From Escherichia coli (GTDB lineage Bacteria > Pseudomonadota > Gammaproteobacteria > Enterobacterales > Enterobacteriaceae), in the NCBI RefSeq assembly GCF_044324875.1, contig NZ_CP172188.1: a stretch of DNA of 64,000 bases; one strand, 5' to 3'. Below are positions 4,330 to 64,000 of this stretch, piece after piece. Position numbers and translations under genes: made by a program. How positions within the stretch are numbered: position 1 is the stretch's first letter; each line of letters opens with the position of its first letter. The notes under the pieces are model-generated. The model saw nothing but the letters and a program-made list of their open reading frames with translations. It was not told the DNA's origin and made no database searches.

Positions 4330-4508
4330 TGCCATCGCACAGCCATACGTAGCGTTTAGCTCAGAGATCAATGGTAGTGCTGGCTGGGCTGCCGAAAGGC
4401 AGGCCGGTTCCCTTTTGCGCCGGTAGTTCCAACCCAGTCAGTGCTACCGCCATTGAGATTGGAACCTCACGCGGTAGCTCCTTAAATTAGCAAAAGGAGG
4501 CTGCCAAT
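4330..4508 (+). promoter_or_regulatory. structured leader of antirepressor module A (differs from the leaders of modules B/C/D)
   Basis: Hairpins ctgcc-gaaa-ggcag (~4388-4401) and gttccaa...ttggaac (~4415-4458); AGGAGG before the ATG at 4509. Confidence 0.3.
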
Positions 4509-4724
4509 ATGGCTACTATCCCTACCCCAACTCATTCTGAATTTATCTGGCGTTTCTATTCCTGCCAAAAACACCTGTATATCTGCGTCATGGCTGCAAC
4601 CGAAGCAGAAGCTCGTTCATACCTTCCTGAAGAACCCTGCATTTTTGCCGCACGCTTCACTCTTGATGCGATGGAGATCCTCAATTACTGGAATCTGCCA
4701 ATGAACTGCGTGGAGGTGCACTGA
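4509..4724 (+). CDS. small protein upstream of the antirepressor (Icd-position ORF, module A)
   Basis: 71 aa; stop overlaps the ATG of the next gene (TGATG); paralogous to 28238-28462, 38110-38325 and 63376-63600. Confidence 0.6.
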   Translation: MATIPTPTHSEFIWRFYSCQKHLYICVMAATEAEARSYLPEEPCIFAARFTLDAMEILNYWNLPMNCVEVH

Positions 4725-5665
4725 TGAATCTGTCCATCTCTCAAAAAGCGACAATGACCAGCATTGAGATCGCGGAACTGGTAGGAAGTCGCCAAGATAG
4801 TGTGAAGAGAACTATCGAAACACTGGCTAAAAAGAGTGTGATCCAATTTCCACAATCTGTGGAAATTGAAAATAAACAATCAGTTGGCCCTCGTCGATTT
4901 TCCAAGGCTTACATCTTTGAAGGCGAACAAGGCAAGCGCGATAGTATCATTGTCGTCGCACAGCTCTCTCCGGAATTCACCGCCCGGCTGGTGGACCGCT
5001 GGCGCGAACTGGAGAATGCCAGGGGACCGTTAAAATCAAAAGCCGAAATCCTGGCTGAAATGGCGCAAATGCATCTTGAGCATGAACGCCGGATCAACGC
5101 CGTAAATGCCCAGGTAGCCGAGGTATCAGCACAAGTATCGATGGTCGCTGAAACACTCGAGCAAATAAAGAAAGGCAATATGCCGGAAGGCTACATTGGC
5201 TACCGCCAGCTGGCGGCGAAATGCGGCCTGACTGAAGCCAAATGTCGCAACCTGGTTAACGCTTACCGGATACCCACTGATACGCATGAGTTTTTGACTC
5301 CCGACGGTTTGCTTGCGCGACGCTCAATTGTGGCCCTGGCCCCCTTCCGGAAAGCCTTTAAGCAGGTTATGTCGGAGGCAGAACCACGCAACAAACGCTG
5401 GTATCATCCAAAGATGGGGATGTTTCAGGCAATCCACCATCCTGTGCCTGAAAGTCCAAAGGCAAACCTGTCGTTGCATACCGCCAGAGAGAGGATTAAA
5501 ACAGGGTATGCAATCGTATGCCGTCGAGCATCTTGGCCTGAAGGTGTATGGGTATGGCCCGAAGGTGGATCACGAAAGCACTGGCGCACTATCCGGGATG
5601 GGAAAATCCATGCGATTGATTTAGCTCCAGAGGATGTTGTTGCTACGGACTGGATTGTTAGTTAA
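4724..5665 (+). CDS. phage antirepressor-type protein (Rha-like N-terminal domain plus conserved C-terminal domain), module A
   Basis: 313 aa; N-terminus ...MTSIEIAELVGSRQDSVKRTIETL... resembles the Rha regulatory domain; C-terminal ~180 aa nearly identical to the module B and C proteins. Confidence 0.6.
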   Translation: MNLSISQKATMTSIEIAELVGSRQDSVKRTIETLAKKSVIQFPQSVEIENKQSVGPRRFSKAYIFEGEQGKRDSIIVVAQLSPEFTARLVDRWRELENARGPLKSKAEILAEMAQMHLEHERRINAVNAQVAEVSAQVSMVAETLEQIKKGNMPEGYIGYRQLAAKCGLTEAKCRNLVNAYRIPTDTHEFLTPDGLLARRSIVALAPFRKAFKQVMSEAEPRNKRWYHPKMGMFQAIHHPVPESPKANLSLHTARERIKTGYAIVCRRASWPEGVWVWPEGGSRKHWRTIRDGKIHAIDLAPEDVVATDWIVS

Positions 5666-5673
5666 TTACTGTT

Positions 5674-5695
5674 GCCCCGGCCTGTCCGGGGCTTT
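5674..5695 (+). terminator. conserved hairpin / terminator after the antirepressor gene
   Basis: ccccgg-cctgt-ccgggg followed by cttt; the same element follows modules B and C. Confidence 0.5.
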
Positions 5696-5724
5696 AACTA
5701 CTAAATAACCGGATTCTCCGCACG

Positions 5725-6009
5725 ATGAAGAAAATAGATTTCACTTACTCTGCTGCCACAATCCAGCGACGTTTCAGTCTCATAAGGGAAGTGGAACTAT
5801 CAAAAAACTGGTATCAAATTCTACTGGATGAAGAGTTTTCACTGATGGTTATAGCAGAAAAATTGGCTATGCCGAATGACCGGCACAAGGTCATAGCCAG
5901 CCTGGATCTGGTGACAAACAGATACTGGGAATCCGAGGAACTACTTGAAGTTGGCTTGATACGCGAGATGATAGAACAGGCTGTTCCCCTCCACTTACAG
6001 CAACCATAA
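5725..6009 (+). CDS. hypothetical protein (94 aa)
   Basis: ORF at the start of an AT-rich segment; no recognisable motif. Confidence 0.4.
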   Translation: MKKIDFTYSAATIQRRFSLIREVELSKNWYQILLDEEFSLMVIAEKLAMPNDRHKVIASLDLVTNRYWESEELLEVGLIREMIEQAVPLHLQQP

Positions 6010-6145
6010 TTGAAAGGTCTTAACGATAGTCTGCCACGAATAGTTACTTTCACTGCCTAAAGTTATTTAATTGCATTACAAAGTGTAAATTAGTAACATT
6101 AGAATCTCACACAGCACTATAACTATATGTTTTTTATGTAAAAGG

Positions 6146-6505
6146 ATGATAATCGTGGCTACTAAAATTAAACTTGAAAACCCTCAAACTGGCGAATCAA
6201 TCACCGGTTTTTATGGTTTTTCCTGGACTACATTCTTGTTTGGTGCTTTTCCAGCTTTGTTCAGGAAAGACTTTATAACTTTTATTGGGGTATTCGTAGT
6301 GATGCTGATACTGGCATTCCTCACAGCCGGAATTGGCCCGTGGATTGCCTCATTTATCTGGGCGTTCATGTATAATAAATATTTCACCGTAAATAAGATA
6401 AAACAAGGCTTCATTTTTGCTGGTTCTCACACAGAAAATGAGTTGGCTGCTAGCAAGCTAGGATTGTCATTAAATCAAAACAACTGCAAAACTATTACCG
6501 AGTAA
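6146..6505 (+). CDS. small inner-membrane protein (two hydrophobic segments)
   Basis: 119 aa; hydrophobic stretches FSWTTFLFGAFPALF and FIGVFVVMLILAFLTAGIGPWIASFIWAF; alternative GTG start at 6155 has better Shine-Dalgarno spacing. Confidence 0.45.
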   Translation: MIIVATKIKLENPQTGESITGFYGFSWTTFLFGAFPALFRKDFITFIGVFVVMLILAFLTAGIGPWIASFIWAFMYNKYFTVNKIKQGFIFAGSHTENELAASKLGLSLNQNNCKTITE

Positions 6506-7367: not shown

Positions 7368-7607
7368 TTCATTAACTCCATACTTTACCATCTTAGCCGC
7401 GAGCGCGGTCCCTAAAACCATTAACTTCACTGCACCGTTCCTTCATGCAATCAAAATGACTTTTATGTTATAAAAATAATCAGCCAAATCAACATGATTT
7501 AGGCCAAATGCGTATTCCGCTCTATTCGATCACGGATTGGCATCGAAGTCCGATCAGCGATTCGCATCCATTCGATCAACCGGGAACTTAACTTTTTCTA
7601 CCGCTTT

Positions 7608-8363
7608 TTAACGCGTTTTTTCGCTGCTTTCCACTACCGGGGGATTTTTCCTCAGTGACTCTCCCTGAAGGACCACTCGGTGTGAGTTATGTACCAGTCT
7701 GTCCAGGATGGCATCTGCTGTTGTTGGGTTCTCCATCAGACCATGCCATTTATCTACCGGGAACTGGCTTACCACTATCGTGCTGCTTTGTCCGTAACGA
7801 TCCTCTATGAGCTCCAGAAGGTCATTACACTGGGCGTTACTTAACTGTTCCAGCCCCAGATCGTCCAGGATTAGAACCTGTATTTTTTGCAACTGTTTCA
7901 GATATTTCAGCCAGCTGCCATCAACACGTCCCTGAGCCAGTTGTTCCAGTAATCGCCCGGTTCTACAGTACCGGACGCTGTGTTTCTGTCGACATGCCTG
8001 TTCGCCCAGCGCATTGGCTATCCAGCTCTTGCCACATCCTGTCGGACCGGTTATCAGCAGGTTTTTCCTGTGGGTTATGTAGTGGCCGTTCAGCAGTTCT
8101 CTCATCTGTTCAGCCCGCAGACCTCTTGAGGCCGGATAGCGCAGCCCTTCCGGTGTTGCCTGGTATTTCAGGCCGGCATTTTTTCTCAACCGTGCCACAC
8201 GGCTGTTTTCCCTGCTCAGAAGCTCGTCATCAACCAGCAGCGTCAGCCTTTCCTCGAACGACAGTTCGTCGTAGGTCTGAGGCGTTTCCCGCTGCCGTAT
8301 CAGGCTCCCGGCCATCGCCGGGAGTTTCAGTTGGGTCAGTTTGTTTAACAGGTTATCACTCAT
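7608..8363 (-). CDS. istB: IS21-family transposition helper ATPase IstB
   Basis: Walker A GPTGCGKS, DExx-like LILDDLG; start set at MSDNLL with AAGGAA Shine-Dalgarno; the ORF track extends upstream to 8606. Confidence 0.85.
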   Translation of the reverse strand: MSDNLLNKLTQLKLPAMAGSLIRQRETPQTYDELSFEERLTLLVDDELLSRENSRVARLRKNAGLKYQATPEGLRYPASRGLRAEQMRELLNGHYITHRKNLLITGPTGCGKSWIANALGEQACRQKHSVRYCRTGRLLEQLAQGRVDGSWLKYLKQLQKIQVLILDDLGLEQLSNAQCNDLLELIEDRYGQSSTIVVSQFPVDKWHGLMENPTTADAILDRLVHNSHRVVLQGESLRKNPPVVESSEKTR

Positions 8364-8379
8364 ACTGTTGTTCCTTCTG

Positions 8380-9915
8380 TCAGTGGTAGTAGCCCGGACC
8401 ACGCAGGTTTTCATGCTCTGAAGCATATGCCGGATGTTGTTCGCCCTGGCGGGATAATGGAAGCTCCAGGTTCTCCCGATGGTGACGCAGCAGATTGTCG
8501 ATAAAGCGTCTGTCAGGGGCGTTATAGTGCAGGGCAACGTAACAGGCCTTTTCCAGCCGTTCCGGGCCGTATTTTTTCTGAAGTGCCAGCAGCCCCAGAA
8601 CTGCACGATAAGCCAGTTCCGGATGGGGTTTTGCCTTCAGCATGGATTCAACCACCCGGCCTGTGGACGGGCCCGTACGTTTTCCCTGCTCGATCAGGCG
8701 TTCCGGTGTCCATGTCCCGTGCTGCCGGTGGCGCTCTGGCATGTGAAGCGGATTGGTTGTGTGTTTATATTCATGTGTGCTGCGCGGATGTTGCGCCACA
8801 CACTGCCCCTTGTGCCAGAGCTGTACCACCGACTGCCCCGCCTTCAGTGACAGACGCTGACCGACCAGTTCGTGTGGAACGGAGTACCAGTGACGGGCAT
8901 ATTCAACGTGGTAGTCAGGGCCAACCTTCACAGCTTTGTATTCCGTGTATTCATAAGGTGCCAGAGGCAGCGGAGAGAGTGCTGGCGCATCCAGTATGCG
9001 GAAGCGTTCTGCACGGGTTTGATTGCCGTACCCCTTCATTGGCCGGTTATTCATGTCTGTCAGTAACTCCCTAAGGCGCGCATTCAGCGCCCTGAGCGTG
9101 TGGAAGGTTTCATTACGGATGCGGGCAAGAAGCCATCGTTCAACGATGAGGACGCCGTTTTCTGCTTTTGGTTTATCTTTAGGTTTGCGTGGTCGGGCCG
9201 GGATGATAACCGTGCCATAGTGCTCAGCCAGTGCCTGATAACTGTCGTTGATGACAGGCTCATATCGATCGGCCTTTTTCACTGCGCTTCTGAGGTTATC
9301 GGGGATGAGCAGCTTCGGTACGCCGCCCAGGAAGGTCAGGCAACGGCTGTGGGCATTTAACCATGACATCATGTCCTGACCTTCGCACGCTTCAACGTAG
9401 GTATAGTTGGACGCCCCCATTACGGCCACGAAGATTGCCACGCGGCGTATCTCACCGGTGTCCGGATTAATAACAGGAACCGTAGGACCACAGAAGTCGA
9501 TAAAAAGCTTTTCGCCGGCACGATGCTCCTGGCGCATGGAGAGACGTCGCGTTTTTTTCCACTCCCGGTAGCAACGGCAGAAGTGCGAGTATCCCATCGC
9601 TTTGTTACCCGCCTGTGCCTTGTATTCCATCCACAACAGTTGCCGCGTCACACCTGGTTTTCTCATTTCCGTATCGAAGTACAACATGTCAGGCATTACA
9701 AGCTCTGATGCAAAGGTGTCTTTGGGCGGAAAAATGAGTTTCTCCAGCGTGTCATGGGATATATCAGCAGGTAATGGCCATGACAGAGAAGAGGCTTTGA
9801 AGCGGGCAAGAACCTCAAAAACGGTTGAGGCGCTGATGTGTAACGTCAGTCCGATACAACGGTTAGTCAGCTTCTTGTCGAACTTGAGCTGAAGGATCTT
9901 AAAACAGGTTTCCAT
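8380..9915 (-). CDS. istA: IS21-family transposase IstA
   Basis: ~511 aa from METCF... (AGGAG Shine-Dalgarno); N-terminal HTH and a DDE-type core; the ORF track extends to 10026. Confidence 0.85.
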   Translation of the reverse strand: METCFKILQLKFDKKLTNRCIGLTLHISASTVFEVLARFKASSLSWPLPADISHDTLEKLIFPPKDTFASELVMPDMLYFDTEMRKPGVTRQLLWMEYKAQAGNKAMGYSHFCRCYREWKKTRRLSMRQEHRAGEKLFIDFCGPTVPVINPDTGEIRRVAIFVAVMGASNYTYVEACEGQDMMSWLNAHSRCLTFLGGVPKLLIPDNLRSAVKKADRYEPVINDSYQALAEHYGTVIIPARPRKPKDKPKAENGVLIVERWLLARIRNETFHTLRALNARLRELLTDMNNRPMKGYGNQTRAERFRILDAPALSPLPLAPYEYTEYKAVKVGPDYHVEYARHWYSVPHELVGQRLSLKAGQSVVQLWHKGQCVAQHPRSTHEYKHTTNPLHMPERHRQHGTWTPERLIEQGKRTGPSTGRVVESMLKAKPHPELAYRAVLGLLALQKKYGPERLEKACYVALHYNAPDRRFIDNLLRHHRENLELPLSRQGEQHPAYASEHENLRGPGYYH

Positions 9916-10307
9916 AGTGCTCCTGGATTTTCTCTTTCTGGACATTGACGTCTCCACTGGTTTAAACACGGCAATGGAGACTGTGGTGAAAAGAGTTAAT
10001 TCCCGGAGTGACTGGCAGGATGCCAATCAATGATCGGAAGCATGCCAAATCGTGATCGATTGTGATGCCAAACTGTGATCGGAGATGGATGCCAAATCAT
10101 GATCGATTCGAATGCCAAACTGCGATCGATTCAGATGCCATTTTGCAGCCAAATTTCTGTCAAAAAATAAAATCCACAAAAAGTGGTTGACACTATTTTG
10201 GAAATCACAAACTGCACATAATCCATCGCGCTAACGGCTCCCGTTGAAGGTTCTTTTGACGATTAACTTTCAGCCGAAGCGCGGTAGGGAGTCATAACGC
10301 CAAAGCA

Positions 10308-19782: not shown

Positions 19783-19798
19783 TAACCGACAGCTTGTT

Positions 19799-20446
19799 GT
19801 GAGTCTTTGTGATTTTACGGGGGCAATGGTTGCCCCCTGGCTGGAATACGGTGTCGATGCCGCTATCGTCGATCCACAGCACTTATCGACCAGTGACGAG
19901 CGGATGCAATCAGGTGCCGTTCTGACGCGTATTAGTGCGATCATCGATAGCGATGAAGTATACGCTTTTCTTCGTAAGAATTTGCAGCGCATCGTGTTTC
20001 TGGCCGGGTTCCCACCGTGTACTGACCTGGCTGTTTCCGGCGCGCGCTGGTTTTCTGACAAGGCTAATAAAGATCCGGTTTTCCAGTTCAAAGCAATGCA
20101 GGTTGTCTGGCAGTGTTACGACATTGCAAAGATGATTGGTTGCCCGTACATGATTGAAAACCCGGTCAGCCAAATATCGACATTCTGGCGTAAACCTGAT
20201 CACATCTTCCATCCTTACCACTTCACTGCATATTGCAAGGAAGACAATTACACCAAAAAAACATGCCTCTGGAGCGGGCAAGGCTTTGTCATGCCTGATG
20301 CCCTAATGGACGAATCATTAGGCAAGCCAGATAACAGAATCCATACCGCGCCACCTGGACCTGAAAGGGCTAATTTTCGAAGTGCTACTCCGCATGGATT
20401 CGCAAAGGCAGTTTTCGAAGCGAATAAGGGGGTGCTCTATGAGTAA
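19799..20446 (+). CDS. DNA cytosine-C5 methyltransferase-like protein (short; start uncertain)
   Basis: LCDFTGAM (motif I-like), GFPPC (PC catalytic motif-like), MIENPV (ENV-like); candidate starts GTG 19799 or ATG 19826; the frame is open from 19694. Confidence 0.4.
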   Translation: MSLCDFTGAMVAPWLEYGVDAAIVDPQHLSTSDERMQSGAVLTRISAIIDSDEVYAFLRKNLQRIVFLAGFPPCTDLAVSGARWFSDKANKDPVFQFKAMQVVWQCYDIAKMIGCPYMIENPVSQISTFWRKPDHIFHPYHFTAYCKEDNYTKKTCLWSGQGFVMPDALMDESLGKPDNRIHTAPPGPERANFRSATPHGFAKAVFEANKGVLYE

Positions 20447-21392: not shown

Positions 21393-23054
21393 TTAACCTA
21401 ACTTCGCCCAGGTATCACGCAGCCCAACGGTGCGGTTAAATACCGGTTTTTCCGCCGTAGAATGGCGGCTATCGAGGCAGAAGTAACCTTCACGCTCAAA
21501 CTGGAATGCTTTACCCGCAACCGCATCTTTCAGCGACGGTTCAGCAAAGCCCTGTTTGATCACCAGCGATTCCGGGTTAATCACCGACAGGAAATCATCC
21601 GCAGCACCTGGGTTAGGCACGCTGAACAGACGATCGTACAGGCGGATTTCAACCGGCAGCGCATGTGCCGCGCTCACCCAGTGAATAACGCCTTTCACTT
21701 TACGACCATCTGCCGGATCTTTGCTTAAGGTGTCGGCGTCATAAGTACAGAAGATGGTGGTGATATTGCCTTCGGCATCTTTCTCCACGCGTTCAGCCTT
21801 AATGACGTAAGCATTACGCAGACGCACTTCTTTACCCAGCACCAGACGTTTGTACTGCTTGTTAGCTTCTTCGCGGAAATCGGCGCGGTCGATCCAAATC
21901 TCACCGCTAAACGGCACCTGACGGCTACCCATTTCCGGTTTGTTCGGATGGTTCGGCATGGTGACCATTTCGCCTTCGCCCTGGTAGTTTTCGATAACCA
22001 GTTTCACCGGATCGATAACCGCCATTGCGCGCGGCGCATTTTCGTTGAGATCTTCACGGATGCAGGATTCCAGCGACGCCATCTCAATGGTGTTGTCCTG
22101 CTTGGTCACGCCGATGCGTTTGCAGAACTCACGAATAGAAGCCGCAGTGTAACCACGACGACGCAGACCGGAAATGGTCGGCATACGCGGGTCATCCCAG
22201 CCTTCAACGTGTTTGTCGGTCACCAGCAGGTTCAGCTTACGCTTGGACATCACGGTGTATTCCAGATTCAGGCGCGAGAATTCGTACTGGCGCGGGTGAA
22301 CAGGAATGGTGATGTTGTCCAGCACCCAGTCGTACAGGCGACGGTTGTCCTGGAACTCAAGCGTACACAGAGAGTGCGTAATACCTTCCAGCGCATCGCT
22401 GATGCAATGGGTGAAGTCGTACATCGGGTAGATGCACCACTTGTTGCCAGTCTGGTGGTGTTCAGCAAATTTAATGCGGTACAGCACCGGATCGCGCATT
22501 ACGATAAATGGCGACGCCATGTCGATTTTCGCACGCAGGCAGGCTTTACCTTCTTCAAAACCACCGGCACGCATTTTTTCGAACAGCGCCAGGTTCTCTT
22601 CAACGCTGCGATCGCGGTACGGGCTGTTTTTACCCGGCTGCGTCAGGGTGCCGCGGTATTCGCGGATCTGTTCCGGCGTCAGTTCGTCAACATACGCCAG
22701 GCCTTTGTTGATCAGTTCAACAGCATAGGCGTGGAGCTGATCAAAATAATCGGAGGAGTAACGGATGTTGCCAGACCAGTGAAAACCTAACCATTCAACG
22801 TCGTTTTTAATCGACTCGACGTACTCGATATCTTCTTTTACCGGGTTAGTGTCGTCGAAACGCAGGTTGCACTGGCCTTTATAGTCCTGGGCGATCCCGA
22901 AGTTCAGGCAGATAGATTTCGCATGACCAATATGCAGATAGCCATTCGGTTCCGGCGGGAAACGGGTATGTACTGTGGTGTGCTTACCACTGGCCAGATC
23001 TTCATCGATGATCTGACGAATAAAGTTAGTCGGGCGGGCTTCTGCCTCACTCAT
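21393..23054 (-). CDS. glnS: glutamine--tRNA ligase (GlnRS)
   Basis: 553 aa, colinear with E. coli GlnS over the whole length as I recall it (HIGH motif, VMSKR motif); C-terminus ...WAKLG. Confidence 0.95.
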
Positions 23055-27896: not shown

Positions 27897-27909
27897 TATG
27901 TTAGAAAAA
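27897..27909 (+). promoter_or_regulatory. copy of dispersed motif (TATGTTAGAAAAA) ~50 bp upstream of the module B promoter
   Basis: See findings. Confidence 0.35.
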
Positions 27910-27961
27910 TAATTTGAATTTTCGAACATAAACAATAAAATAAATCATCAAAAATTTGATG

Positions 27962-27990
27962 TTGATCTTCCATGTTTTCAGGCTTATATT
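27962..27990 (+). promoter_or_regulatory. sigma70-like promoter of module B
   Basis: TTGATC - 17 bp - TATATT; identical sequence in module D and, reverse-complemented, in module C. Confidence 0.5.
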
Positions 27991-27996
27991 CACGCC

Positions 27997-28237
27997 GTTG
28001 CAGCAAATTCTGCGACCGGGTTTAGCAGCCTGAATGTACATGCGGACAACCGCAGATATCCGATATTGCGGTATTTTTGTGTCCGTAAAACCATGTTACG
28101 CCCGAATTATGGTGGGGCGTGATGGGGAGGCTTCGGCCTGCTGGTTTCATGTACGCCAGTCTGCTAACCCCGTCACGTCCTGCCACCCGTTTAGCAGCGG
28201 GTAGCAGGTTGTTAAACCTGTACATGAGGCCGTAACT
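27997..28237 (+). ncRNA. structured leader with an embedded c4-like antisense regulator and two target sites (module B)
   Basis: Elements TTAGCAG/GTACATG at 28022-28042 and 28191-28226 (the second abuts the GAGG Shine-Dalgarno) are complementary to CATGTAC/CTGCTAA at 28148-28167; the complementarity is kept by compensatory changes in modules C and D. Confidence 0.5.
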
Positions 28238-28462
28238 ATGGTTAATGCCAATCCTTGCTCACGTCCAGAATTCATCTGGCGTTTTCACTCCCTGCAAAAA
28301 CACTGCGATCACTTCGCAATTGCCGCAACTGAAAAAGAAGCCCGTTCTCTGATCCCTGATCAGTATGGTGTTCTTACTGGTCGTTTCTCTACTTCCCCAC
28401 AACCAAACACTAATCCCTGGTATCGCAATATTACCAATCCCGGAATTGCGGAGGCACACTGA
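28238..28462 (+). CDS. small protein upstream of the antirepressor (Icd-position ORF, module B)
   Basis: 74 aa; TGATG coupling to the next gene. Confidence 0.65.
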   Translation: MVNANPCSRPEFIWRFHSLQKHCDHFAIAATEKEARSLIPDQYGVLTGRFSTSPQPNTNPWYRNITNPGIAEAH

Positions 28463-29382
28463 TGGATATCTGCATTCTTGAAAAGCCATCAATGACCAGC
28501 ATTGAGATCGCGGAGCTGGTGGGAAGTCGTCCAGATAACGTAAAAATATCAATAGAGCGCCTGGCTAAATCTGGAGTTATTCAACTTCCTGCATTGCAGG
28601 TTTTCGAAAAAATCAATAACTTAGGACTACGCCGTAGTGTCGAGGCTTACGTCTTCGAAGGCGAGCAAGGCAAACGAGACAGCATTATTGTCGTTGCGCA
28701 GCTCTCTCCCGAATTCACCGCCCGGCTGGTGGACCGCTGGCGCGAACTGGAAGAACAAGTACGCCAGCCGTTGACCGAAATAGAGATGATCGCCGCAATG
28801 GCTGCAAATGCAGTTCAGCAGCAAAAGCGGCTTCATGTTGTTGAGTCAAAGGTTAGCCAGGTTGCTGAAACCGTCGAGCAGATCAAGAAGGGCAACATGC
28901 CAGAAGGTTACATTGGCTACCGCCAGCTGGCGGCGAAATGTGGCCTGACTGAAGCCAAATGTCGCAACCTGGTTAACGCTTTCCGGATTCCCACCGATAC
29001 GCATGAGTTTTTAACTCCAGATGGTTTGCTTGCGCGACGCTCCATTGTGGCCCTGGCCCCCTTCCGGAAAGCCTTTAAGCAGGTGATGTCGGAGGCAGAA
29101 CCACGCAACAAACGCTGGTATCATCCGAAGATGGGGCTGTTTCAGGCAATCCATCATCCTGTGCCTGAAAGCCCAAAGGATAATCTGTCACTACATACCG
29201 TCAGAGAGAAGATCAGGACTGGATACGCAACAGTGTGTCGTCGTTCTTCCTGGCCTGAAGGTATATGGGTGTGGCCCGAAGGTGGATCACGAAAGCACTG
29301 GCGCACTATCCGGGACGGGAAAATCCATGCTATTGATTTAGCGCCAGAGGATATTGTTGCTACGGACTGGATTGTTAGTTAA
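28462..29382 (+). CDS. phage antirepressor-type protein (Rha-like N-domain), module B
   Basis: 306 aa; N-terminus ...MTSIEIAELVGSRPDNVKISIERL...; conserved C-terminal domain. Confidence 0.65.
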   Translation: MDICILEKPSMTSIEIAELVGSRPDNVKISIERLAKSGVIQLPALQVFEKINNLGLRRSVEAYVFEGEQGKRDSIIVVAQLSPEFTARLVDRWRELEEQVRQPLTEIEMIAAMAANAVQQQKRLHVVESKVSQVAETVEQIKKGNMPEGYIGYRQLAAKCGLTEAKCRNLVNAFRIPTDTHEFLTPDGLLARRSIVALAPFRKAFKQVMSEAEPRNKRWYHPKMGLFQAIHHPVPESPKDNLSLHTVREKIRTGYATVCRRSSWPEGIWVWPEGGSRKHWRTIRDGKIHAIDLAPEDIVATDWIVS

Positions 29383-29389: not shown

Positions 29390-29413
29390 TGCCCCGGCCT
29401 GTCCGGGGCTTTC
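29390..29413 (+). terminator. conserved hairpin / terminator after module B
   Basis: ccccgg-cctgt-ccgggg followed by cttt. Confidence 0.5.
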
Positions 29414-37083: not shown

Positions 37084-37106
37084 AGCCCCGGACAGGCCGG
37101 GGCAAC
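37084..37106. terminator. conserved hairpin / bidirectional terminator (shared by the structural operon and module C)
   Basis: ccccgg-acagg-ccgggg between convergent genes. Confidence 0.5.
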
Positions 37107-38325: not shown

Positions 38326-38566
38326 AGTTACGGCCTCATGTACAGGTTTAACAACCTGCTACCCGCTGTCAAACAGGTGGCAGGGCGTGACAGGGTTGAC
38401 AGACTGGCGTACATGAAACCAGCAGGCCGAAGCCTCCCCATCACGCCCCACCATAATTCGGGCGTAACGTGGTTTACGGACACAAAAATACCGCAATATC
38501 GGAAATCTGCGGATGTCCGCATGTACATTCAGGCTGTCAAACCTGGTCGCAGAATTTGCTACGACG
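38326..38566 (-). ncRNA. structured leader with a c4-like antisense regulator (module C)
   Basis: Minus-strand elements TTGACAG/GTACATG (targets) and CATGTAC/CTGTCAA (antisense) in the same arrangement as module B. Confidence 0.5.
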
Positions 38567-38571
38567 GCGTG

Positions 38572-38600
38572 AATATAAGCCTGAACATCTGGAAGATCAA
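38572..38600 (-). promoter_or_regulatory. sigma70-like promoter of module C
   Basis: Reverse complement of TTGATC-17-TATATT. Confidence 0.5.
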
Positions 38601-38653
38601 CATCAAATTGTTGATGATTTATTTTATTATTCATGTTTGAAAATTCAAATTAT

Positions 38654-38666
38654 TTTTCTAACACAA
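38654..38666 (-). promoter_or_regulatory. copy of dispersed motif upstream of the module C promoter
   Basis: TTTTCTAACACAA on the plus strand = TTGTGTTAGAAAA on the minus strand. Confidence 0.35.
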
Positions 38667-48372: not shown

Positions 48373-51257
48373 TTATGGGTGCTGATAAAACGAACAACAT
48401 AATGACACTATCCTCTGGTGTCTCACAGCCGTTGCTTGCTGATGTTCAATATTTCGAACTCTATAGTAGTTCGGCTCTTAACAGAAAACTTAAAAATATT
48501 GTTTTGCCGGGCTTTTACTGTGGATTTGAACCGGTTCCCGGCACAGGGTTGAGTGTCCGTATAACTTCTGAAAACTCAGAAGGTAAAGGGGCTGCTTCAG
48601 TAGATGTAAATAATGTTCAGATATCCGTTCAGCAAATAGAAGATGTGACTGTCTCGGTAAAGGCAGGGGCTACCAACATTATTGTGCTGGAAGCCAATTT
48701 TGAACATGGTGTAAAAACGACACAGGTAGATAGCGCATCTTCTGTCAGTGCTGCAAGAATTTACGCGCGTACGGACAATACTATTGGGCAGAATCAAATT
48801 GAATTATGTCGAGTTATCGTGCCTAGCGGCGCAACGGCTGTGACTAAAGAAATGATTGTGCTTAAATACCGGGTTAACCGTGCTGTTGGTGTCGAATTCT
48901 CTAATGAAATAAGCAGTACAGAAGAAAGAAAAGCGGCTACACCTCTGGCTGTCAAAACTCTCCATGATTTGGTTGATACAAAAGCCCCGATCAACAGCCC
49001 GAATCTGACAGGAACGCCAACAACACCAACAGCGCCACAGGGGACTAATAATACCCAGATCGCAAGCACGGCTTTCGTTATGGCCGCGATTGCCGCACTT
49101 GTAGATTCGTCACCTGATGCACTTAACACTCTGAACGAACTGGCCGCCGCGCTTGGTAATGATCCGAACTTTTCCGCGACAGTGACTCGCCTGATTGGAG
49201 AAAAAGTTGCCAAAGATGGCGACACCATGACAGGTAAACTTAATCTGCCGCAGACCTCTGCATTCGGCATCAATACCAACAACAGACTGGGGGGGAACTC
49301 TCTGACGCTGGGCGATCACGATACCGGAATTAAACAGGAAGGAGACGGCGTATTGTCCGTGTTCGCCAACGGCCAGCGTGTGTTCCTTTTCACGGAAAGA
49401 AGTATTACCTCATTAAAAGAGCTTCTGATAGGGGATGCACGTTATAGCACCGGTGGTGATGTGTATGGCAGTCAGTGGGGAGACGGTTGGTTGAGTTCCT
49501 GGTTAAGTGCTCGCTTTGCAGAGTGTGCCAACGCCAGCCATAACCACCCTTGGAGCCAGATTACCGACGTACCAGCAGCCAGCCTCACTCAGAGCGGCAT
49601 TGTACAACTTAGTAGTGCCATCAACAGCACTTCTGAAACATTAGCTGCAACTCCAAAAGCGGTTAAAGCTGCATACGATCTAGCAGCCGGAAAGGCACCA
49701 TCCAGTCATACACACCCCTGGAATCAGATCACTGGTGTGCCAACAGCTTCATTGACAGCGAAAGGCATCACTCAGCTCAGTAGTGCTACTAACAGCACGT
49801 CTGAAGTGCTGGCCGCCACACCAAAAGCTGTCAAGGCTGCATATGACCTGGCTAACGGGAAGTATACAGCCCAGGATGCAACCACGACACAAAAAGGGAT
49901 AGTTCAGCTCAGTAGCGACACCAACAGCACTTCTGAAACATTAGCTGCAACTCCAAAAGCGGTTAAAGCTGCATACGATCTAGCAGCCGGAAAGGCACCA
50001 TCCAGTCATACACACCCCTGGAATCAGATCACTGGTGTGCCAACAGCTTCATTGACAGCGAAAGGCATCACTCAGCTCAGTAGTGCTACTAACAGCACGT
50101 CTGAAGTGCTGGCCGCTACACCGAAAGCGGTTAAAGCTGCATACGATCTAGCAGCCGGAAAGGCACCATCCAATCATATACATCCCTGGAATCAGATCAC
50201 TGGTGTGCCAACAGCTTCATTGACAGCGAAAGGCATCACTCAGCTCAGTAGTGCCACTAACAGCACGTCTGAAGTGCTGGCCGCTACACCGAAAGCGGTT
50301 AAAGCTGCATACGATCTAGCAGCCGGAAAGGCACCATCCAGTCATACACACCCCTGGAATCAGATCACTGGTGTGCCAACAGCTTCATTGACAGCGAAAG
50401 GCATCACTCAGCTCAGTAGTGCTACTAACAGCACGTCTGAAGTGCTGGCCGCTACACCGAAAGCGGTTAAAGCTGCATACGATCTAGCAGCCGGAAAGGC
50501 ACCATCCAATCATATACATCCCTGGAATCAGATCACTGGTGTGCCAACAGCTTCATTGACAGCGAAAGGCATCACTCAGCTCAGTAGTGCCACTAACAGC
50601 ACGTCTGAAGTGCTGGCCGCTACACCGAAAGCGGTTAAAGCTGCATACGATCTAGCAGCCGGAAAGGCACCATCCAATCATATACATCCCTGGAATCAGA
50701 TCACTGGTGTGCCAACAGCTTCATTGACAGCGAAAGGCATCACTCAGCTCAGTAGTGCCACTAACAGCACGTCTGAAGTGCTGGCCGCTACACCGAAAGC
50801 TGTCAAGGCTGCATACGATCTGGCAAACGGAAAACAACCGGCAGATGCCACGCTCACTGCTCTGGCAGGACTTGCCACTGCAGCAGATCGGTTGCCTTAT
50901 TTTACCGGAGCAGACCGCGCAGCGCTGACAACCCTTACAGCTATTGGTCGCGCTATTATCGCTAAGGGCAGTATAAAAGATGTCCTCAATTACCTTGGTT
51001 TAGGAGAAGGCTCGGCGCTACCCGTTGGTGTGCCTGTTCCATGGCCCACCGCCACACCGCCAGCAGGCTGGTTAAAGTGCGACGGGCGCGCCTTTACAAA
51101 AGAACAATATCCTGTTCTGGCCAGAGTCTACCCGACCCTCCGTCTTCCCGATTTACGCGGTGAGTTTATCCGTGGATGGGACGACGGGCGAAAAGTTGAT
51201 ACAGGGCGCGATTGCTTTCACGGCAAGGGGTACAAGTTTTTCTCATTACGGAGGTAA
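48369..51257 (+). CDS. tail fibre protein with variable C-terminus encoded in the invertible segment
   Basis: 962 aa; about seven tandem ~60-aa repeats containing ATPKAVKAAYDLA...H.HPW.QITGVP (classic fibre repeat); the last ~85 aa lie inside the invertible segment. Confidence 0.7.
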   Translation: MIMGADKTNNIMTLSSGVSQPLLADVQYFELYSSSALNRKLKNIVLPGFYCGFEPVPGTGLSVRITSENSEGKGAASVDVNNVQISVQQIEDVTVSVKAGATNIIVLEANFEHGVKTTQVDSASSVSAARIYARTDNTIGQNQIELCRVIVPSGATAVTKEMIVLKYRVNRAVGVEFSNEISSTEERKAATPLAVKTLHDLVDTKAPINSPNLTGTPTTPTAPQGTNNTQIASTAFVMAAIAALVDSSPDALNTLNELAAALGNDPNFSATVTRLIGEKVAKDGDTMTGKLNLPQTSAFGINTNNRLGGNSLTLGDHDTGIKQEGDGVLSVFANGQRVFLFTERSITSLKELLIGDARYSTGGDVYGSQWGDGWLSSWLSARFAECANASHNHPWSQITDVPAASLTQSGIVQLSSAINSTSETLAATPKAVKAAYDLAAGKAPSSHTHPWNQITGVPTASLTAKGITQLSSATNSTSEVLAATPKAVKAAYDLANGKYTAQDATTTQKGIVQLSSDTNSTSETLAATPKAVKAAYDLAAGKAPSSHTHPWNQITGVPTASLTAKGITQLSSATNSTSEVLAATPKAVKAAYDLAAGKAPSNHIHPWNQITGVPTASLTAKGITQLSSATNSTSEVLAATPKAVKAAYDLAAGKAPSSHTHPWNQITGVPTASLTAKGITQLSSATNSTSEVLAATPKAVKAAYDLAAGKAPSNHIHPWNQITGVPTASLTAKGITQLSSATNSTSEVLAATPKAVKAAYDLAAGKAPSNHIHPWNQITGVPTASLTAKGITQLSSATNSTSEVLAATPKAVKAAYDLANGKQPADATLTALAGLATAADRLPYFTGADRAALTTLTAIGRAIIAKGSIKDVLNYLGLGEGSALPVGVPVPWPTATPPAGWLKCDGRAFTKEQYPVLARVYPTLRLPDLRGEFIRGWDDGRKVDTGRDCFHGKGYKFFSLRR
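49540..50830 (+). repeat. tandem ~180-bp in-frame repeats in the tail-fibre gene
   Basis: Near-identical units with few substitutions (for example SSHTHPW versus SNHIHPW). Confidence 0.8.
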
Positions 51258-53036
51258 TTTCGACATTGGGTCTGGTTATTCAATCAATAACTACGACCAA
51301 TAGTTGTTTCTAACAACCAAGATTTTCCCGACCTTCATGAGGGCCTTTAACGAGGTGATGGGGTTAACATGTAACCATTCGTCCTGGTAACATTGTTTAA
51401 TTATATGGTATGCAGGCTATAAACGTTGGTTTAGGAGAAGCGGCGCTATGCGTTGGTGTGCCTGTTCAGTGGCCCCCGCCACACCGCCATTGCAGGCTTA
51501 ATTAAATTGTGAGGGCGCGTTTACAAAAGAACAATATCAGTTCTGGCCAGAAAACCCGACCCTCCGCTTCCCGATTTAGCGGTGCGATATCCGTGGATCA
51601 CTATGACGAGACGAAAGGTTGATACACGGGCGTGCCTCTTTGGAGTTTCGCCCTTGGGACTATCGTATCCGGTTTTGATGCGCCGATGCATACCGGAGAT
51701 TTCAGGTTACGTGGTCGGCTGCCACACAAACGGATGGTGACGCATTTAACCTGATCACCTGGGGGTATAAATGGCAAAAAGTGGATATTTGATGCATCCC
51801 AACCGGTGCACAAAGATATGACTGGCGGACTTACCACCAGCAAAACAGCCTGCCACAATATGGGATTTAACTATATCGTGAAGGCGGCGTATACCGTTAC
51901 TGAACGGCATAGAGCCGCAGTGGCGCTGGCCAGCTGCAACGCCAGAAACCTTGTGATATCCAGGCGTTCAGCTCGTCGATATAATCCAGCACGGCGGGCA
52001 GTTTTGCCGTTTCTTCCAGTTTCAGACTGCGACCTGCCCGCCGTTTGGGTTGATAGGTCGACGGCTTCACGCCTGGATCCACCCGGCACTGGCGTTGCAG
52101 TTGGCAAGTCTCCAGCTCTGCGGCTCTATGCCGGCTCAGTATCACGCCGCCCACGATTACCGTTCCAGGTATCCCATGGTGTGGCAGGCTGTTTTGTGGT
52201 GGTGTCCGCCGGTAATCACCCGGTTGAGGTGCATCAGAACGGGGTTCCCGTTTTCCGTTTATACCGTCTCCCGCGGTGATTAGGGTTACATGCGTCCCAA
52301 ATCCGTTCAGTGTGGCAGTCCGAAACCACGTAACCCGATATCCTCCGGTATGCATTATCATCACGAACCGGAGTACGATAGTCCCAAGGGCGAGATACTG
52401 AAAGTAGCGCACGCCCGGTATCAACCTTTCGTCCGTCATATCCACGGATAAACTCACCGCGTAAATCGGGAAGACGGATCGGTTAGACTCTGGCCAGAAC
52501 AGGATATTGTTCTTTTGTAAACGCGCCCTCACAATGTAACCAGCCTGCTACGGCGGTGTGACGGTGATACCCTTCGCATACAGGCTTCTGATAGAGGTCA
52601 GAATAGTAGCCTGCATACCATTGTCTGACATTACCACGATGTTACGAGGATCGCTGAATGTTGTCCCGTCCGGCATTTTGAAGGCCCTCACGAAGGTCTG
52701 TAATGGAATCTTCATTGTTGAATCCCATGCCGACTATCCCCGAGGTTCCCGTAGTGTCCTGGTTATAATAATCCAGCATTGCTGTTCTTAACAGCGTTGC
52801 CCCTTGTGCGGACAGCAACTTACGTCCTGTATCAACTTTGCGCCCGTCGTCCCATCCACGGATAAACTCACCGCGTAAATCGGGAAGACGGAGGGTCGGG
52901 TAGGCTCTGGCCAGAACAGGATATTGTTCTTTTGTAAAGGCGCGCCCGTCGCACTTTAACCAGCCTGCTGGCGGTGTGGCGGTGGGCCACGGAACAGGCA
53001 CACCAACGGGTAGCGCCGAGCCTTCTCCTAAACCAA
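50995..53036. other. invertible tail-fibre segment (Cin/Gin-type) with ~210-bp inverted repeats plus two degenerate internal repeat copies
   Basis: IR-L 50995-51205 and IR-R 52826-53036 are near-identical inverted copies beginning with TTGGTTTAGGAGAAGG; degenerate copies at ~51425-51640 (direct) and ~52440-52570 (inverted, partial); invertase gene starts 67 bp beyond IR-R. Confidence 0.6.
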
Positions 53037-53102
53037 CGTTTATCTCTCAAATCCTCCCCACATTATCTCAGTACTTTAACCACTCAAAAGGGAGTATTTT
53101 TA

Positions 53103-53675
53103 ATGCTGATTGGCTACATACGTGTGTCAACAAATGACCAAAACACAGATTTGCAACGCAATGCATTAATGTGCGCAGGATGTGAACAGATTTTTGAGGA
53201 CAAAATGAGCGGAACCAAGTCGGAACGACCAGGCCTGAAACGCGCTTTAAAGTGCCTTAAAAGAGGGGATACATTGGTGGTCTGGAAGCTGGATCGGTTG
53301 GGTAGAAGAATGAAACACCTCATTGCTCTCACAGAAGAGCTACGCGCAAAAGGTGTCAATTTTCGCAGTCTGACGGATTCAATCGATACCAGCACTCCGA
53401 TGGGAAGGTTCTTTTTTCATATGATGGGTGCACTGGCAGAAATGGAGCGTGAACTGATAGTTGAGCGCACGCTGGCAGGACTGGCTGCTGCGCGATCACA
53501 AGGAAGAGTTGGAGGACGTCGCCCGAAACTGACGAAGGAGCAGCATGAGCAGATCGCAAGATTGCTCCAGAAAGGGTATGACAGAAAGCGGCTGGCAATT
53601 ATCTATGATATTGGACTGTCAACGATCTACCGCTATCACCCTGTTGGGACTGTCATAACGCAACCTGAAATGTAA
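53103..53675 (+). CDS. serine DNA invertase (Hin/Gin/Cin/Pin family)
   Basis: MLIGYIRVSTNDQNTDLQ..., RPGLKRAL, LVVWKLDRLGR, C-terminal HTH; 190 aa. Confidence 0.85.
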   Translation: MLIGYIRVSTNDQNTDLQRNALMCAGCEQIFEDKMSGTKSERPGLKRALKCLKRGDTLVVWKLDRLGRRMKHLIALTEELRAKGVNFRSLTDSIDTSTPMGRFFFHMMGALAEMERELIVERTLAGLAAARSQGRVGGRRPKLTKEQHEQIARLLQKGYDRKRLAIIYDIGLSTIYRYHPVGTVITQPEM

Positions 53676-53891
53676 TTCTTTTTCAAATAATGAAACGCCG
53701 CGTGGATGCCATTTATCGCACAAGATAGAGTGCATTTATCGCGCGGCGCATCATCATTTGTTGATATGCGAATGTATCCAATAAGCATATGTCTCCCTTG
53801 TATGCTAAGGATACGATCCTAGAAGATGTCCTGTAAGGAAATAACAAACTGACTAAGTTAGTGGCGCATTAGATGTTATTTCTGGAGGGGT

Positions 53892-60787: not shown

Positions 60788-60800
60788 CCGGAGGGAAATA

Positions 60801-61799: not shown

Positions 61800-61815
61800 C
61801 CGTTACATGAAGTTA

Positions 61816-61828
61816 AATTTCTAACATA
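61816..61828 (-). promoter_or_regulatory. copy of dispersed motif (reverse orientation) after the protease-like gene
   Basis: AATTTCTAACATA = reverse complement of TATGTTAGAAATT. Confidence 0.3.
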
Positions 61829-61911: not shown

Positions 61912-61937
61912 CAAAAGCCGCTGAGAAGCGGCTTTTG
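61912..61937 (+). terminator. rho-independent terminator candidate
   Basis: agccgc-tgagaa-gcggct followed by TTTT. Confidence 0.55.
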
Positions 61938-61999
61938 GGTGTATAAATCCTCGGACATAGATTTATACGGTAGATAGATTTTTTTCACGGAACTATCTG

Positions 62000-62962: not shown

Positions 62963-63012
62963 CCTGTGTGTCTACAAAGCATCCCAATGATCGGAAAATG
63001 CTCGCTCGATGA

Positions 63013-63027
63013 TTTGTGTTAGAAAAT
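63013..63027 (+). promoter_or_regulatory. copy of dispersed motif upstream of the module D promoter
   Basis: TTTGTGTTAGAAAAT. Confidence 0.35.
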
Positions 63028-63100
63028 TAATTTGCTGTTTCTAAATCGGAATGTATGATCTGCATCATCGACTGAAGTCATCCATTGCTGAAATTTTTAG

Positions 63101-63129
63101 TTGATCTTCCATGTTTTCAGGCTTATATT
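63101..63129 (+). promoter_or_regulatory. sigma70-like promoter of module D
   Basis: TTGATC-17-TATATT, identical to module B. Confidence 0.5.
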
Positions 63130-63135
63130 CATGCC

Positions 63136-63375
63136 GTCGTAGCAAATTCTGCGACCAGGTTTGACAGCCTGAATGTTAGTGCGGACAACCGCAGATTTCC
63201 GATATTGCGGTATTTTTGTGTCCGTAAACCGCGTTACGCCCGAATTATGGTGGGGCGTGATGGGGAGGCTTCGGCCTGCTGGTTTCACTAACGCCAGTCT
63301 GTCAACCCTGTCACGTCCTGCCACCTGTTTGACAGCGGGTAGCAGGTTGTTAAACCTGTTAGTGAGGCCGTAACT
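63136..63375 (+). ncRNA. structured leader with a c4-like antisense regulator (module D)
   Basis: TTGACAG/GTTAGTG at 63161-63181 and 63329-63364; complementary CACTAAC/CTGTCAA at 63286-63305. Confidence 0.5.
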
Positions 63376-63600
63376 ATGGTTAATGCCAATCCTTGCTCAC
63401 GTCCAGAATTCATCTGGCGTTTCCACTCCCTGCAAAAACACTGCGATCACTTCGCAATTGCCGCAACCGAAAAAGAAGCCCGTTCTCTGATCCCTGATCA
63501 GCATGGTGTTCTTACTGGTCGTTTCTCTACTTCCCCACAACCAAACACTAATCCCTGGTATCGCAATATTACCAATCCCGGCATTGCGGAGGCACACTGA
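63376..63600 (+). CDS. small protein upstream of the antirepressor (Icd-position ORF, module D)
   Basis: 74 aa, near-identical to the module B copy. Confidence 0.65.
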   Translation: MVNANPCSRPEFIWRFHSLQKHCDHFAIAATEKEARSLIPDQHGVLTGRFSTSPQPNTNPWYRNITNPGIAEAH

Positions 63601-64000
63601 TGGATATCTGCATTCTTGAAAAGCCATCAATGACCAGCATTGAGATCGCGGAGCTGGTGGGAAAACGTCATGACAATGTGAAGCGTACCATTGAAACATT
63701 AGCCGAATCCGGCGTTATTGTTCGTCCTCAAATTGAGGATGAACCAAAAATAGATGTAATGGGGCGTTCTCGATTAATTCAGGTGTTCCGATTTAGCGAC
63801 GAGCAAGGCAAACGAGACAGTATCATTGTAGTCGCACAGCTTTGTCCTGAGTTTACTGCCCGGCTGGTGGACCGCTGGCGCGAACTGGAAGAACAAGTAC
63901 GCCAGCCGTTGACCGAAATAGAGATGATCGCCGCAATGGCTGCAAATGCAGTTCAGCAGCAAAAGCGGCTTCATGTTGTTGAGTCAAAGGTTAGCCAGGT
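63600..64000 (+). CDS. phage antirepressor-type protein (Rha-like N-domain), module D, truncated by the window end
   Basis: MDICILEKPSMTSIEIAELVGKRHDNVKRTIETL...; frame open to position 64000. Confidence 0.6.
   Translation, partial: MDICILEKPSMTSIEIAELVGKRHDNVKRTIETLAESGVIVRPQIEDEPKIDVMGRSRLIQVFRFSDEQGKRDSIIVVAQLCPEFTARLVDRWRELEEQVRQPLTEIEMIAAMAANAVQQQKRLHVVESKVSQ

Follow-up and report, generated by a model that had tools for sequence, protein, structure and literature searches.

The immI operon of phage P1 is a textbook antisense-RNA immunity switch, and P1 together with P7 is the standard example of heteroimmunity determined by a few RNA bases. In the P1 operon, the C4 RNA is processed from the leader and blocks translation of the cell-division inhibitor gene icd as well as expression of ant, and the Ant protein inactivates the C1 repressor (PMC8198154; Citron & Schuster 1990 as cited there). 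In the Gifsy-1 prophage of Salmonella, the short IsrK RNA activates translation of the read-through isrK-orf45-anrP mRNA, from which an ~80-nt RNA complementary to IsrK, STnc1160, is processed; translation of anrP is coupled to that of orf45, and the AnrP protein triggers prophage induction (PMC4825925). Here, we analysed 64,000 nucleotides of Escherichia coli DNA (contig NZ_CP172188.1 of assembly GCF_044324875.1; "the window" denotes this whole stretch), which by alignment is most of a D6-like phage-plasmid of the P1 supercluster and, by its RNA and open reading frame (ORF) families, carries four self-contained immI-type switches, designated modules A to D. In our judgement, each of the four probably works like P1 immI with an RNA address of its own; the steps of the mechanism are taken over from P1 and Gifsy-1.

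Architecture of the four modules

RNA elements were located by an Rfam scan of the whole window at gathering thresholds (45 bits for C4, RF01695; 46.7 bits for c4-a1b1, RF03163; 50 bits for isrK, RF01394), a check that a first-pass annotation of this DNA had itself proposed for the C4 and IsrK families. The scan returned eight matches, every one within the four modules: four to C4, three to c4-a1b1 and one to isrK. The C4 matches were all full length and scored 68.8-76.7 bits, 24-32 bits above the gathering score, and the c4-a1b1 matches of modules B, C and D scored 53.5-55 bits. A single three-helix fold is common to the four C4 RNAs, with compensatory stem changes in that of module A. Each module also contains a small ORF of 71-74 aa whose stop codon overlaps the ATG of a large ORF, as TGATG in A, B and D and as TAATG in C, so that the ORF listing, the Rfam matches and the junctions agree with the annotation on the places of the four ORF pairs and on the form of their overlap. 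P1 has an overlap of the ATGA type (icd at 571-792, ant1 from 789). Past modules A, B and C, the same terminator hairpin, GCCCCGG-CCTGT-CCGGGGC (GCCCCGGCCTGTCCGGGGC), is repeated identically at the positions listed below, where the annotation had noticed it.

The leaders of B, C and D are ~88% identical to that of P1 and collinear with the annotated P1 and P7 immI regions, running from P51b through a1, b1, c4, a2 and b2 to the icd Shine-Dalgarno sequence, and the shared part order extends to the overlap of icd with the next gene. A promoter-like TTGATC-17-TATATT site, found exactly where the annotation had placed a promoter at the start of these modules, aligns with the annotated P1c4 (P51b) promoter of P1. 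Taken with the four C4 RNAs and the Icd-like ORFs, this collinearity bears out the proposed c4-icd-ant layout; the annotation was also right that P1 itself carries a single immI module, compared with four here. The window modules depart from P1 in that the gene past icd is of the Rha or ORF6N type without detectable Ant1/2 similarity and no kilA follows it; moreover, repL lies upstream of module D in D6-like elements and downstream of the module in P1. The parts of the three modules with a P1-type leader are as follows.

Module B
27899-27916, + strand: candidate C1-type operator TGTTAGAAAAATAATTTG, overlapping the -35 of an upstream promoter-like site at 27914-27941
27962-27990, + strand: promoter-like TTGATC-17-TATATT
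27984-28036, + strand: c4-a1b1 of B (RF03163)
28022-28028 and 28036-28042, + strand: a1-B TTAGCAG and b1-B GTACATG, aligned to P1 a1 and b1
28105-28190, + strand: C4-B (RF01695, 71.7 bits)
28148-28154 and 28161-28167, + strand: b' CATGTAC and a' CTGCTAA (P7-type) of C4-B
28191-28197 and 28220-28226, + strand: a2-B and b2-B, the latter adjoining the icd Shine-Dalgarno
28238-28462, + strand: icd-B, 74 aa (NF033153, 40 bits)
28462-29382, + strand: ant-B, 306 aa, Rha-type N-terminus by alignment (PHROG 63, E 3.1e-64)
29391-29409, + strand: terminator hairpin past module B

Module C
38646-38663, - strand: candidate C1-type operator, overlapping the -35 of an upstream promoter-like site at 38648-38621
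38600-38572, - strand: promoter-like TTGATC-17-TATATT
38578-38526, - strand: c4-a1b1 of C (RF03163)
38534-38540 and 38520-38526, - strand: a1-C TTGACAG and b1-C GTACATG
38373-38458, - strand: C4-C (RF01695, 69.9 bits)
38409-38415 and 38396-38402, - strand: b' (allele as in B) and a' (P1-type) of C4-C
38366-38372 and 38337-38343, - strand: a2-C and b2-C
38110-38325, - strand: icd-C, 71 aa (NF033153, 46.6 bits)
37112-38110, - strand: ant-C, 332 aa from the coupled ATG, ORF6N (KilA-N-like) N-terminus (PF10543, E 1.3e-11; PHROG 1726 and 63)
37085-37103, - strand: terminator hairpin followed by a T-run, past module C

Module D
63017-63034, + strand: candidate C1-type operator, a site also present in D6
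63101-63129, + strand: promoter-like TTGATC-17-TATATT
63123-63175, + strand: c4-a1b1 of D (RF03163)
63161-63167 and 63175-63181, + strand: a1-D TTGACAG and b1-D GTTAGTG
63243-63328, + strand: C4-D (RF01695, 68.8 bits)
63329-63335 and 63358-63364, + strand: a2-D and b2-D, both identical to P1 a2 and b2
63376-63600, + strand: icd-D, 74 aa (NF033153, 40.3 bits)
63600-64000, + strand: ant-D, Rha-type, first 133 aa in the window (PHROG 63 and 4936)

Module D runs off the end of the window, and its terminator region lies outside; the visible part of ant-D is 99.2% identical to 306-aa proteins on record. The 77-nt core of C4-D is identical to the annotated P1 c4 at 77 of 77 nucleotides. In module C, icd is a mosaic by segment identities, B/D-like at its N-terminus and A-like in the remainder, and the 361-aa ORF listed at this place is an upstream GTG extension of the coupled 332-aa ORF.

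Module A carries isrK (4244-4322) in the position that c4-a1b1 holds in the other three modules (27984-28036, 38526-38578 and 63123-63175). The two elements fold alike, with a 5' hairpin, a further hairpin bearing a1 in its loop, a single-stranded b1, and a 3' hairpin followed by a U-run, which in A is a clear intrinsic terminator. Judged by position and fold, the A-type module has isrK as its a1b1 element; Rfam groups C4 and c4-a1b1 in one clan and places isrK in none. The annotation had begun module A at 4330; the module is present, and its start moves upstream, as the isrK element and the promoter-like site at 4208-4237 belong to it.

Module A
4208-4237, + strand: promoter-like TTGCGC-18-TATATT, read from the sequence, ending 6 nt ahead of the Rfam isrK start, with a predicted transcription start near 4244
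4244-4322, + strand: isrK-type leader RNA, counterpart of c4-a1b1 (RF01394, 59.4 bits)
4270-4276, + strand: a1-A TTGGAAC, in the hairpin loop of the fold
4287-4294, + strand: b1-A GCAAAAGG, from the site coordinates
4301-4317, + strand: intrinsic terminator in isrK-A with T-run (TTTTCTT), from a terminator scan
4367-4454, + strand: C4-A antisense RNA (RF01695, 76.7 bits; fold of -46.6 kcal/mol in the three-helix shape of P1 C4)
4411-4418 and 4426-4432, + strand: b' loop and a' of C4-A
4459-4465 and 4490-4497, + strand: a2-A and b2-A, exact complements of a' and b', b2 overlapping the icd Shine-Dalgarno AAGGAGG
4509-4724, + strand: icd-A, 71 aa (NF033153, 49.4 bits; PHROG 1426)
4724-5665, + strand: ant-A, 313 aa (Pfam PF09669, Rha; PHROG 63 'anti-repressor Ant', E 2.8e-60)
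5674-5692, + strand: terminator hairpin GCCCCGGCCTGTCCGGGGC past module A

The parallel that the annotation had drawn with the IsrK-orf45-anrP locus holds for module A, which matches isrK, and not for B, C and D, which have c4-a1b1 instead. Module A and the Gifsy-1 locus share isrK with its own terminator, a C4-type RNA, and a coupled pair of a small ORF and an antirepressor-type ORF. In Gifsy-1, however, the small ORF is 45 aa long and begins at transcript nt 107, ~30 nt past isrK (PMC4825925), which suggests a location within the STnc1160 region, whereas module A has a coupled Icd-like ORF of 71 aa that begins 187 nt past the isrK match and downstream of C4. The published mechanism also differs, being activation by the short IsrK RNA and not repression by C4 (PMC4825925). 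On these features, module A differs from the Gifsy-1 locus and is no copy of it. A further likeness is to the CI RNA of phage P4 with its seqA and seqC. There too, a small RNA cut from a leader pairs with complementary sites on either side of itself and keeps downstream genes off; SeqA has been called a structural homologue of IsrK (PMC4825925). P4 CI differs in acting by transcription termination and in controlling replication genes, and we liken it to the modules by description, not by sequence.

In the mechanism that we propose, a constitutive promoter would yield a leader of ~240-265 nt comprising the a1/b1 element, the ~80-nt C4 RNA and the a2/b2 sites. C4 would be excised from this leader, and its b' loop and a' strand would pair with b2 and a2 of a transcript of the same kind. 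Since b2 lies next to or over the icd Shine-Dalgarno, this pairing would block icd translation, and, given that the antirepressor-type ORF starts inside the icd stop, the large ORF would be silenced together with icd. A transcriptional burst from an operator-controlled upstream promoter, once C1 repression is lost, could outcompete C4; alternatively, C4 could be titrated by the short a1b1/isrK RNA, which, by analogy, would fit a role as competitor of a2/b2 for C4. Icd and the large protein would then be made, the large protein would antagonise repression, and the balance would be pushed toward lytic growth. Observed directly are the RNA and ORF families, the complementarity, the stop/start overlaps, the terminators and, as described below, the synteny and the covariation across the population; C4 processing, the translational block, the polarity on ant and the antirepressor activity would follow by analogy with P1 and Gifsy-1.

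Two-site RNA addresses

Addresses were read by aligning the leaders to the annotated immI regions of P1 and P7 and projecting the P1 features onto them. In every module, a1 equals a2 and is the complement of a', and b1 equals b2 and is the complement of b', exactly so at all six sites. The b' site forms the loop of the second C4 hairpin, a' is the single strand past it, and b2 abuts or overlaps the icd Shine-Dalgarno.

P1 (reference): a TTGACAG, b GTTAGTG
P7 (reference): a TTAGCAG, b GATTGTG
Module D: a TTGACAG, b GTTAGTG, equal to P1 at every site
Module C: a TTGACAG (P1 type), b GTACATG (a third b allele)
Module B: a TTAGCAG (P7 type, the a allele of P7 itself), b GTACATG (as in C)
Module A: a TTGGAAC, b GCAAAAGG, unrelated sequences in the same places

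As aligned, these are three clearly distinct addresses and a fourth that differs only at a. Duplex energies for cognate a' plus b' pairing were -20 to -21 kcal/mol, compared with -6 to -16 kcal/mol for most non-cognate pairs, the exception being C4-B on the C target at -20.7 kcal/mol. Furthermore, an invariant UAGCAG in all P1-type leaders also pairs with a P7-type a'; because it blurs the a-site duplex energies, discrimination at the a site is argued here from aligned positions. We consider it likely, as part of the best explanation, that each module carries its own address, that A pairs only with itself, and that the element makes three to four C4 specificities and holds as many separately locked antirepressor genes. 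Because their RNA addresses differ, the modules are not simple redundant copies, a result that refines, and does not confirm, the earlier suggestion of redundant or decoy control; the aligned sites favour differently addressed locks over plain redundancy. Two compatible readings may account for the four modules, namely internal layering, in which the N-terminal domains of the large proteins differ and their targets may differ too, and competition among related phage-plasmids.

The matching of sites extends well beyond the window. A census of IMG/VR collected all stretches exactly matching the conserved C4 core, with the loop left free, and counted the modules with complete flanks. Among P1-type modules, b1, b2, a1 and a2 perfectly matched their own C4 in 110 of 110, with seven b and two a alleles in 12 observed combinations. 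With the isrK-type core, the match was perfect in 67 of 68 modules, and two b and two a alleles occurred in all four combinations. D6 and pAPEC201603 supply additional cases. Along the DNA, the sites are interleaved in the order a1, b1, b', a', a2, b2, so that reassorting a and b needs several crossovers or coordinated changes; perfect matching despite this interleaving argues that the a and b sites are both under selection to stay matched.

Within the multi-module elements examined, no combination of a and b was ever repeated. Random draws from the census would give such non-repetition with a probability of ~0.05-0.08, and the elements compared are relatives of each other; we treat the avoidance of repeated addresses as suggestive. 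GTACATG with a P1-type a and GTACATG with a P7-type a occur together in the window, in the plasmid pAPEC201603 and in IMGVR_UViG_2703718869_000013, and the same address pair is found in genome 2534681832, divided over two contigs.

It is quite possible, if short of an even chance, that the stacking serves warfare of phage against phage, with the extra C4 RNAs widening the immunity of the resident prophage, by silencing the antirepressor of incoming or co-resident P1-like and D6-like relatives with the corresponding addresses, and the extra, differently addressed ant genes allowing escape from the C4 of a resident relative on superinfection. C4-D, being identical to P1 c4, should act on P1-type immI targets in trans, and the heteroimmunity of P1 and P7 has been ascribed to small immI differences (PMC6906374). 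Many address alleles are found in the same hosts (12 P1-type and 4 isrK-type combinations), combinations go unrepeated within elements, and modules change sites and exchange the N-terminal domains of Ant, as described below. On the other side, the distinctness test is borderline and the compared elements are related, modules B and C have b in common, and the effects on immunity and on the C1 of relatives are conjectural for D6-like elements.

The large proteins and the candidate C1 operator

All four small ORFs passed the 25-bit cut-off of the NCBIfam Icd-like model NF033153, and PHROG 1426 is common to them and P1 Icd. The large ORFs all match PHROG 63, 'anti-repressor Ant', which P1 Ant1 matches at E 2.8e-103. 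The C-terminal two thirds align among ant-A, ant-B and ant-C; in the Rha region, B and D align with A, and C has ORF6N instead. For ant-A, an AlphaFold (AF2) model suggests an N-terminal Rha winged helix and a long coiled coil, then another domain resembling a winged helix, and a C-terminal domain of 65 aa. By architecture and family labels, the large ORFs are of the antirepressor type and not demonstrable Ant1/2 homologues: the antirepressor assignment of the annotation stands as far as architecture and the PHROG label carry it, and finds no counterpart in BLASTP or profile-profile similarity to P1 Ant1.

Two observations concern the ends of these proteins. The last ~65 aa (PHROG 7385; for example, 5468-5662) form part of the Ant protein in modules A, B and C, with no Pfam family found for them, and the same domain is a separate ORF, orf17 (19789-19986), past the D-site ant in D6. 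A DUF2829-like identity of this C-terminal stretch was set aside, there being no Pfam support and AF2 confidence being low in this part. At the other end, residues ~24-65 of ant-A (~4793-4918) form a hypervariable patch within the Rha winged helix when compared with D6 orf82 and pAPEC201603, the rest being near-identical; from this alignment, the patch looks like a specificity-determining surface.

Several points weigh against reading the modules as four immI switches of the P1 kind. BLASTP of the large ORFs against P1 Ant1 gave E values of 0.013 and 0.42 over short stretches only, and hhalign profile-profile comparison gave a probability of 0.3%. NCBI names these proteins Rha-family transcriptional regulators, and NCBIfam models gave nothing above cut-off for them. 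The AF2 model of ant-A has a mean pLDDT of 68, which is moderate confidence; a Foldseek search of it against the Protein Data Bank (PDB) found nothing significant, with weak winged-helix (MarR-like) matches, and sequence search found no relatives of solved structure. The term 'antirepressor' therefore rests on architecture and labels. C4 processing and ORF translation are, for this element, predictions, and the independence of B and C is doubtful because the b site is common to both. Finally, the P1 C1 operator consensus ATTGCTCTAATAAATTT, allowing up to three mismatches, had 0 matches in the window, a difference from P1 that led us to set aside C1 control of the P1 type. The c1 gene itself is not within the window, and the operator described next is a proposal.

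As a candidate D6-type C1 operator, we propose the 18-bp motif TGTTAGAAAAWTAATTTG, of which the window holds seven sites compared with 0.24 expected (~30-fold enriched): 3041-3058, 3690-3707, 7466-7483, 27899-27916, 38646-38663, 61809-61826 and 63017-63034. Sites lie upstream of ref, upstream of repL and, in each of B, C and D, 60-85 bp ahead of the main promoter; in B and C, the motif overlaps the -35 of the additional promoter-like site found there. No site adjoins module A. In D6, the motif lies directly upstream of c1, and also upstream of lpa, repL and ref. The position of the candidate in B, C and D is similar to that of Op51 in P1, which overlaps promoter P51a, P51b being unregulated.

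The same protein data bear on a further explanation, in which the large ORFs, instead of antagonising the C1 of the element, regulate by binding DNA or have different targets, for example the repressors of other prophages, so that the element would hold four C4-gated regulators with different outputs. Their N-termini are of the winged-helix (Rha) or ORF6N/KilA-N type, two such domain types sit on one common C-terminal part, and a second winged-helix-like domain is predicted; the MarR-like structural matches, the undetectable homology to P1 Ant1 and the hypervariable patch, as expected of a specificity surface, point the same way. Many characterised antirepressors, however, have this kind of N-terminal domain. 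P1 Ant1 and the window proteins also both match PHROG 63 and PHROG 1726 strongly, and in P1 and Gifsy-1 the proteins encoded at the corresponding position have been shown to work against the prophage repressor (PMC8198154, PMC4825925). We regard this explanation as rather unlikely.

Sites, relatives and stacking of the modules

D6 (MF356679) aligns to 50.9 kb of the 64 kb at 80-99% identity and in a single order (megablast), most of the aligned segments being 93-99% identical and the window lying in reverse orientation relative to D6. The D6 genome has two modules, an isrK-type module beside ref/pmgF (orf83/82), at the place of A, and a c4-a1b1-type module directly past repL (orf19/18), at the place of D. 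It differs from the window in lacking B and C, in its D-site b (ACTTACG) and A-site a (TTGAGAC), and in its D-site ant, which is divided into a 235-aa protein and a 64-aa ORF (orf17) that are fused in A, B and C of the window. Where the window has module B, D6 has ~480 bp of other sequence separating the upfB-side genes from the capsid gene; module C, again relative to D6, is a clean 1.66-kb insertion in the interval between the tail-tube gene and repA. In pYU39_89, a D6-like plasmid prophage, a 'second region' with c4 and icd has been noted (PMC6799933).

Four-fold stacking is not unique to the window. In plasmid pAPEC201603 (NZ_CP127300.1), the same four sites are all filled and none of the four large ORFs is interrupted. 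At B and C this plasmid has exactly the addresses of the window, whereas its A and D addresses differ and its B-site Ant is of the ORF6N type, compared with the Rha type here. Several P1-like contigs stack three or four modules, and some equal the count of the window: IMGVR_UViG_2703718869_000013 carries four modules, all P1-type, and IMGVR_UViG_2713896909_000009 carries three P1-type modules and one of the isrK type. These two contigs, of ~97 kb, differ from the window in encoding Ant1-like proteins, which are of two sequence types (MKKPLV... and MRTSLV...); some of their ant ORFs look shortened, though some of these loci stop near the gene. In another P1-like contig, IMGVR_UViG_651053023_000001, two P1-type C4 modules lie ~1.8 kb apart (~3469 and ~5310) on opposite strands and divergent, and their b alleles differ.

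The modules also appear to be mobile. B-site relatives (NZ_CP020051.1, NZ_CP127300.1 and others) encode an ORF6N-type Ant, whereas the window encodes a Rha-type protein there (N-terminus of ant-B, 28462-28860). Among complete E. coli genomes, none covered 80% or more of the module B region in the arrangement seen here, and no protein identical to ant-B is on record; the closest, P0118, is 97.7% identical, and its gene follows repL, at the D site, in another element (L124). Because the B-site Ant type varies and P0118 stands at the D site, either whole cassettes or N-terminal domains move between sites. Pairwise identity among the four modules is 72-95%, and they are mosaics of one another, for which reason we read them as old paralogues swapping segments and not as fresh duplicates.

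How common such stacking is bears on the possibility that B and C are passive leftovers of recombination, selfish cassettes or recent duplications without function here. In PLSDB, the C site is occupied in ~5 records and the B site in ~12. The P1-type leader occurs there in 699 copies over 587 plasmids, and an evenly spaced sample of 60 records had one copy in 47, two in 13 and three in none. Rarely filled sites, a single leader in most sampled records and the mosaic nature of the modules would suit passive leftovers. Paralogues 72-95% identical are, however, not recent copies, all ORFs are intact in both the window and pAPEC201603, and B and C each retain an intact promoter, operator-like site, terminator and six pairing sites. 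Moreover, B and C have different a alleles at all three a sites together, a difference that takes three coordinated changes. Passive leftovers are very unlikely on this evidence.

A broader proposal, which we hold only tentatively, joins these observations: immI modules would use combinatorial two-site RNA addressing, with at least 12 P1-type and 4 isrK-type addresses, of which up to four non-identical ones are stacked as an arms-race device, and a1b1/isrK would be a common anti-antisense activator. As part of the same joint and equally tentative claim, a repertoire of C4 RNAs would give broad immunity to induction by relatives, and differently locked antirepressors with swapped recognition domains would break the immunity of residents.

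Elsewhere in the element, a 553-aa ORF at 21393-23054 (- strand) stands at the place of D6 orf62, which is annotated as a glutaminyl-tRNA synthetase and is equal in length; identified by synteny only, it may be a phage-plasmid-borne aminoacyl-tRNA synthetase. Two stretches, 7608-10147 and 49022-53753, had no megablast alignment to D6 or pAPEC201603. They hold minus-strand ORFs of 332 and 548 aa and a tail-fibre/invertase segment region, and look like variable cargo or host-range regions.

Every part of the modules belongs to a known family, two modules per element are already on record for D6-like and some P1-like elements, and a four-module plasmid, pAPEC201603, is already in GenBank, although we found no discussion of its modules. 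In the literature searched, we found no description of the stacking of three or four modules, of the breadth of the address repertoire or of the equivalence of isrK and a1b1; an earlier account of any of these is possible.

The addresses place the P1/P7 pair as two points in a much larger set, and single phage-plasmids carry up to four differently addressed switches. Should the addresses not be orthogonal in vivo, the window would simply be a well-annotated multi-copy case of a known operon. If they are orthogonal, synthetic biology would gain a naturally occurring collection of small, mutually orthogonal RNA repressors with their targets, and it would become testable how a specificity diversifies when each site requires three coordinated changes. 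Orthogonal addresses would also explain the coexistence, exclusion and induction seen among closely related phage-plasmids, a group that frequently carries resistance genes in E. coli and Salmonella.

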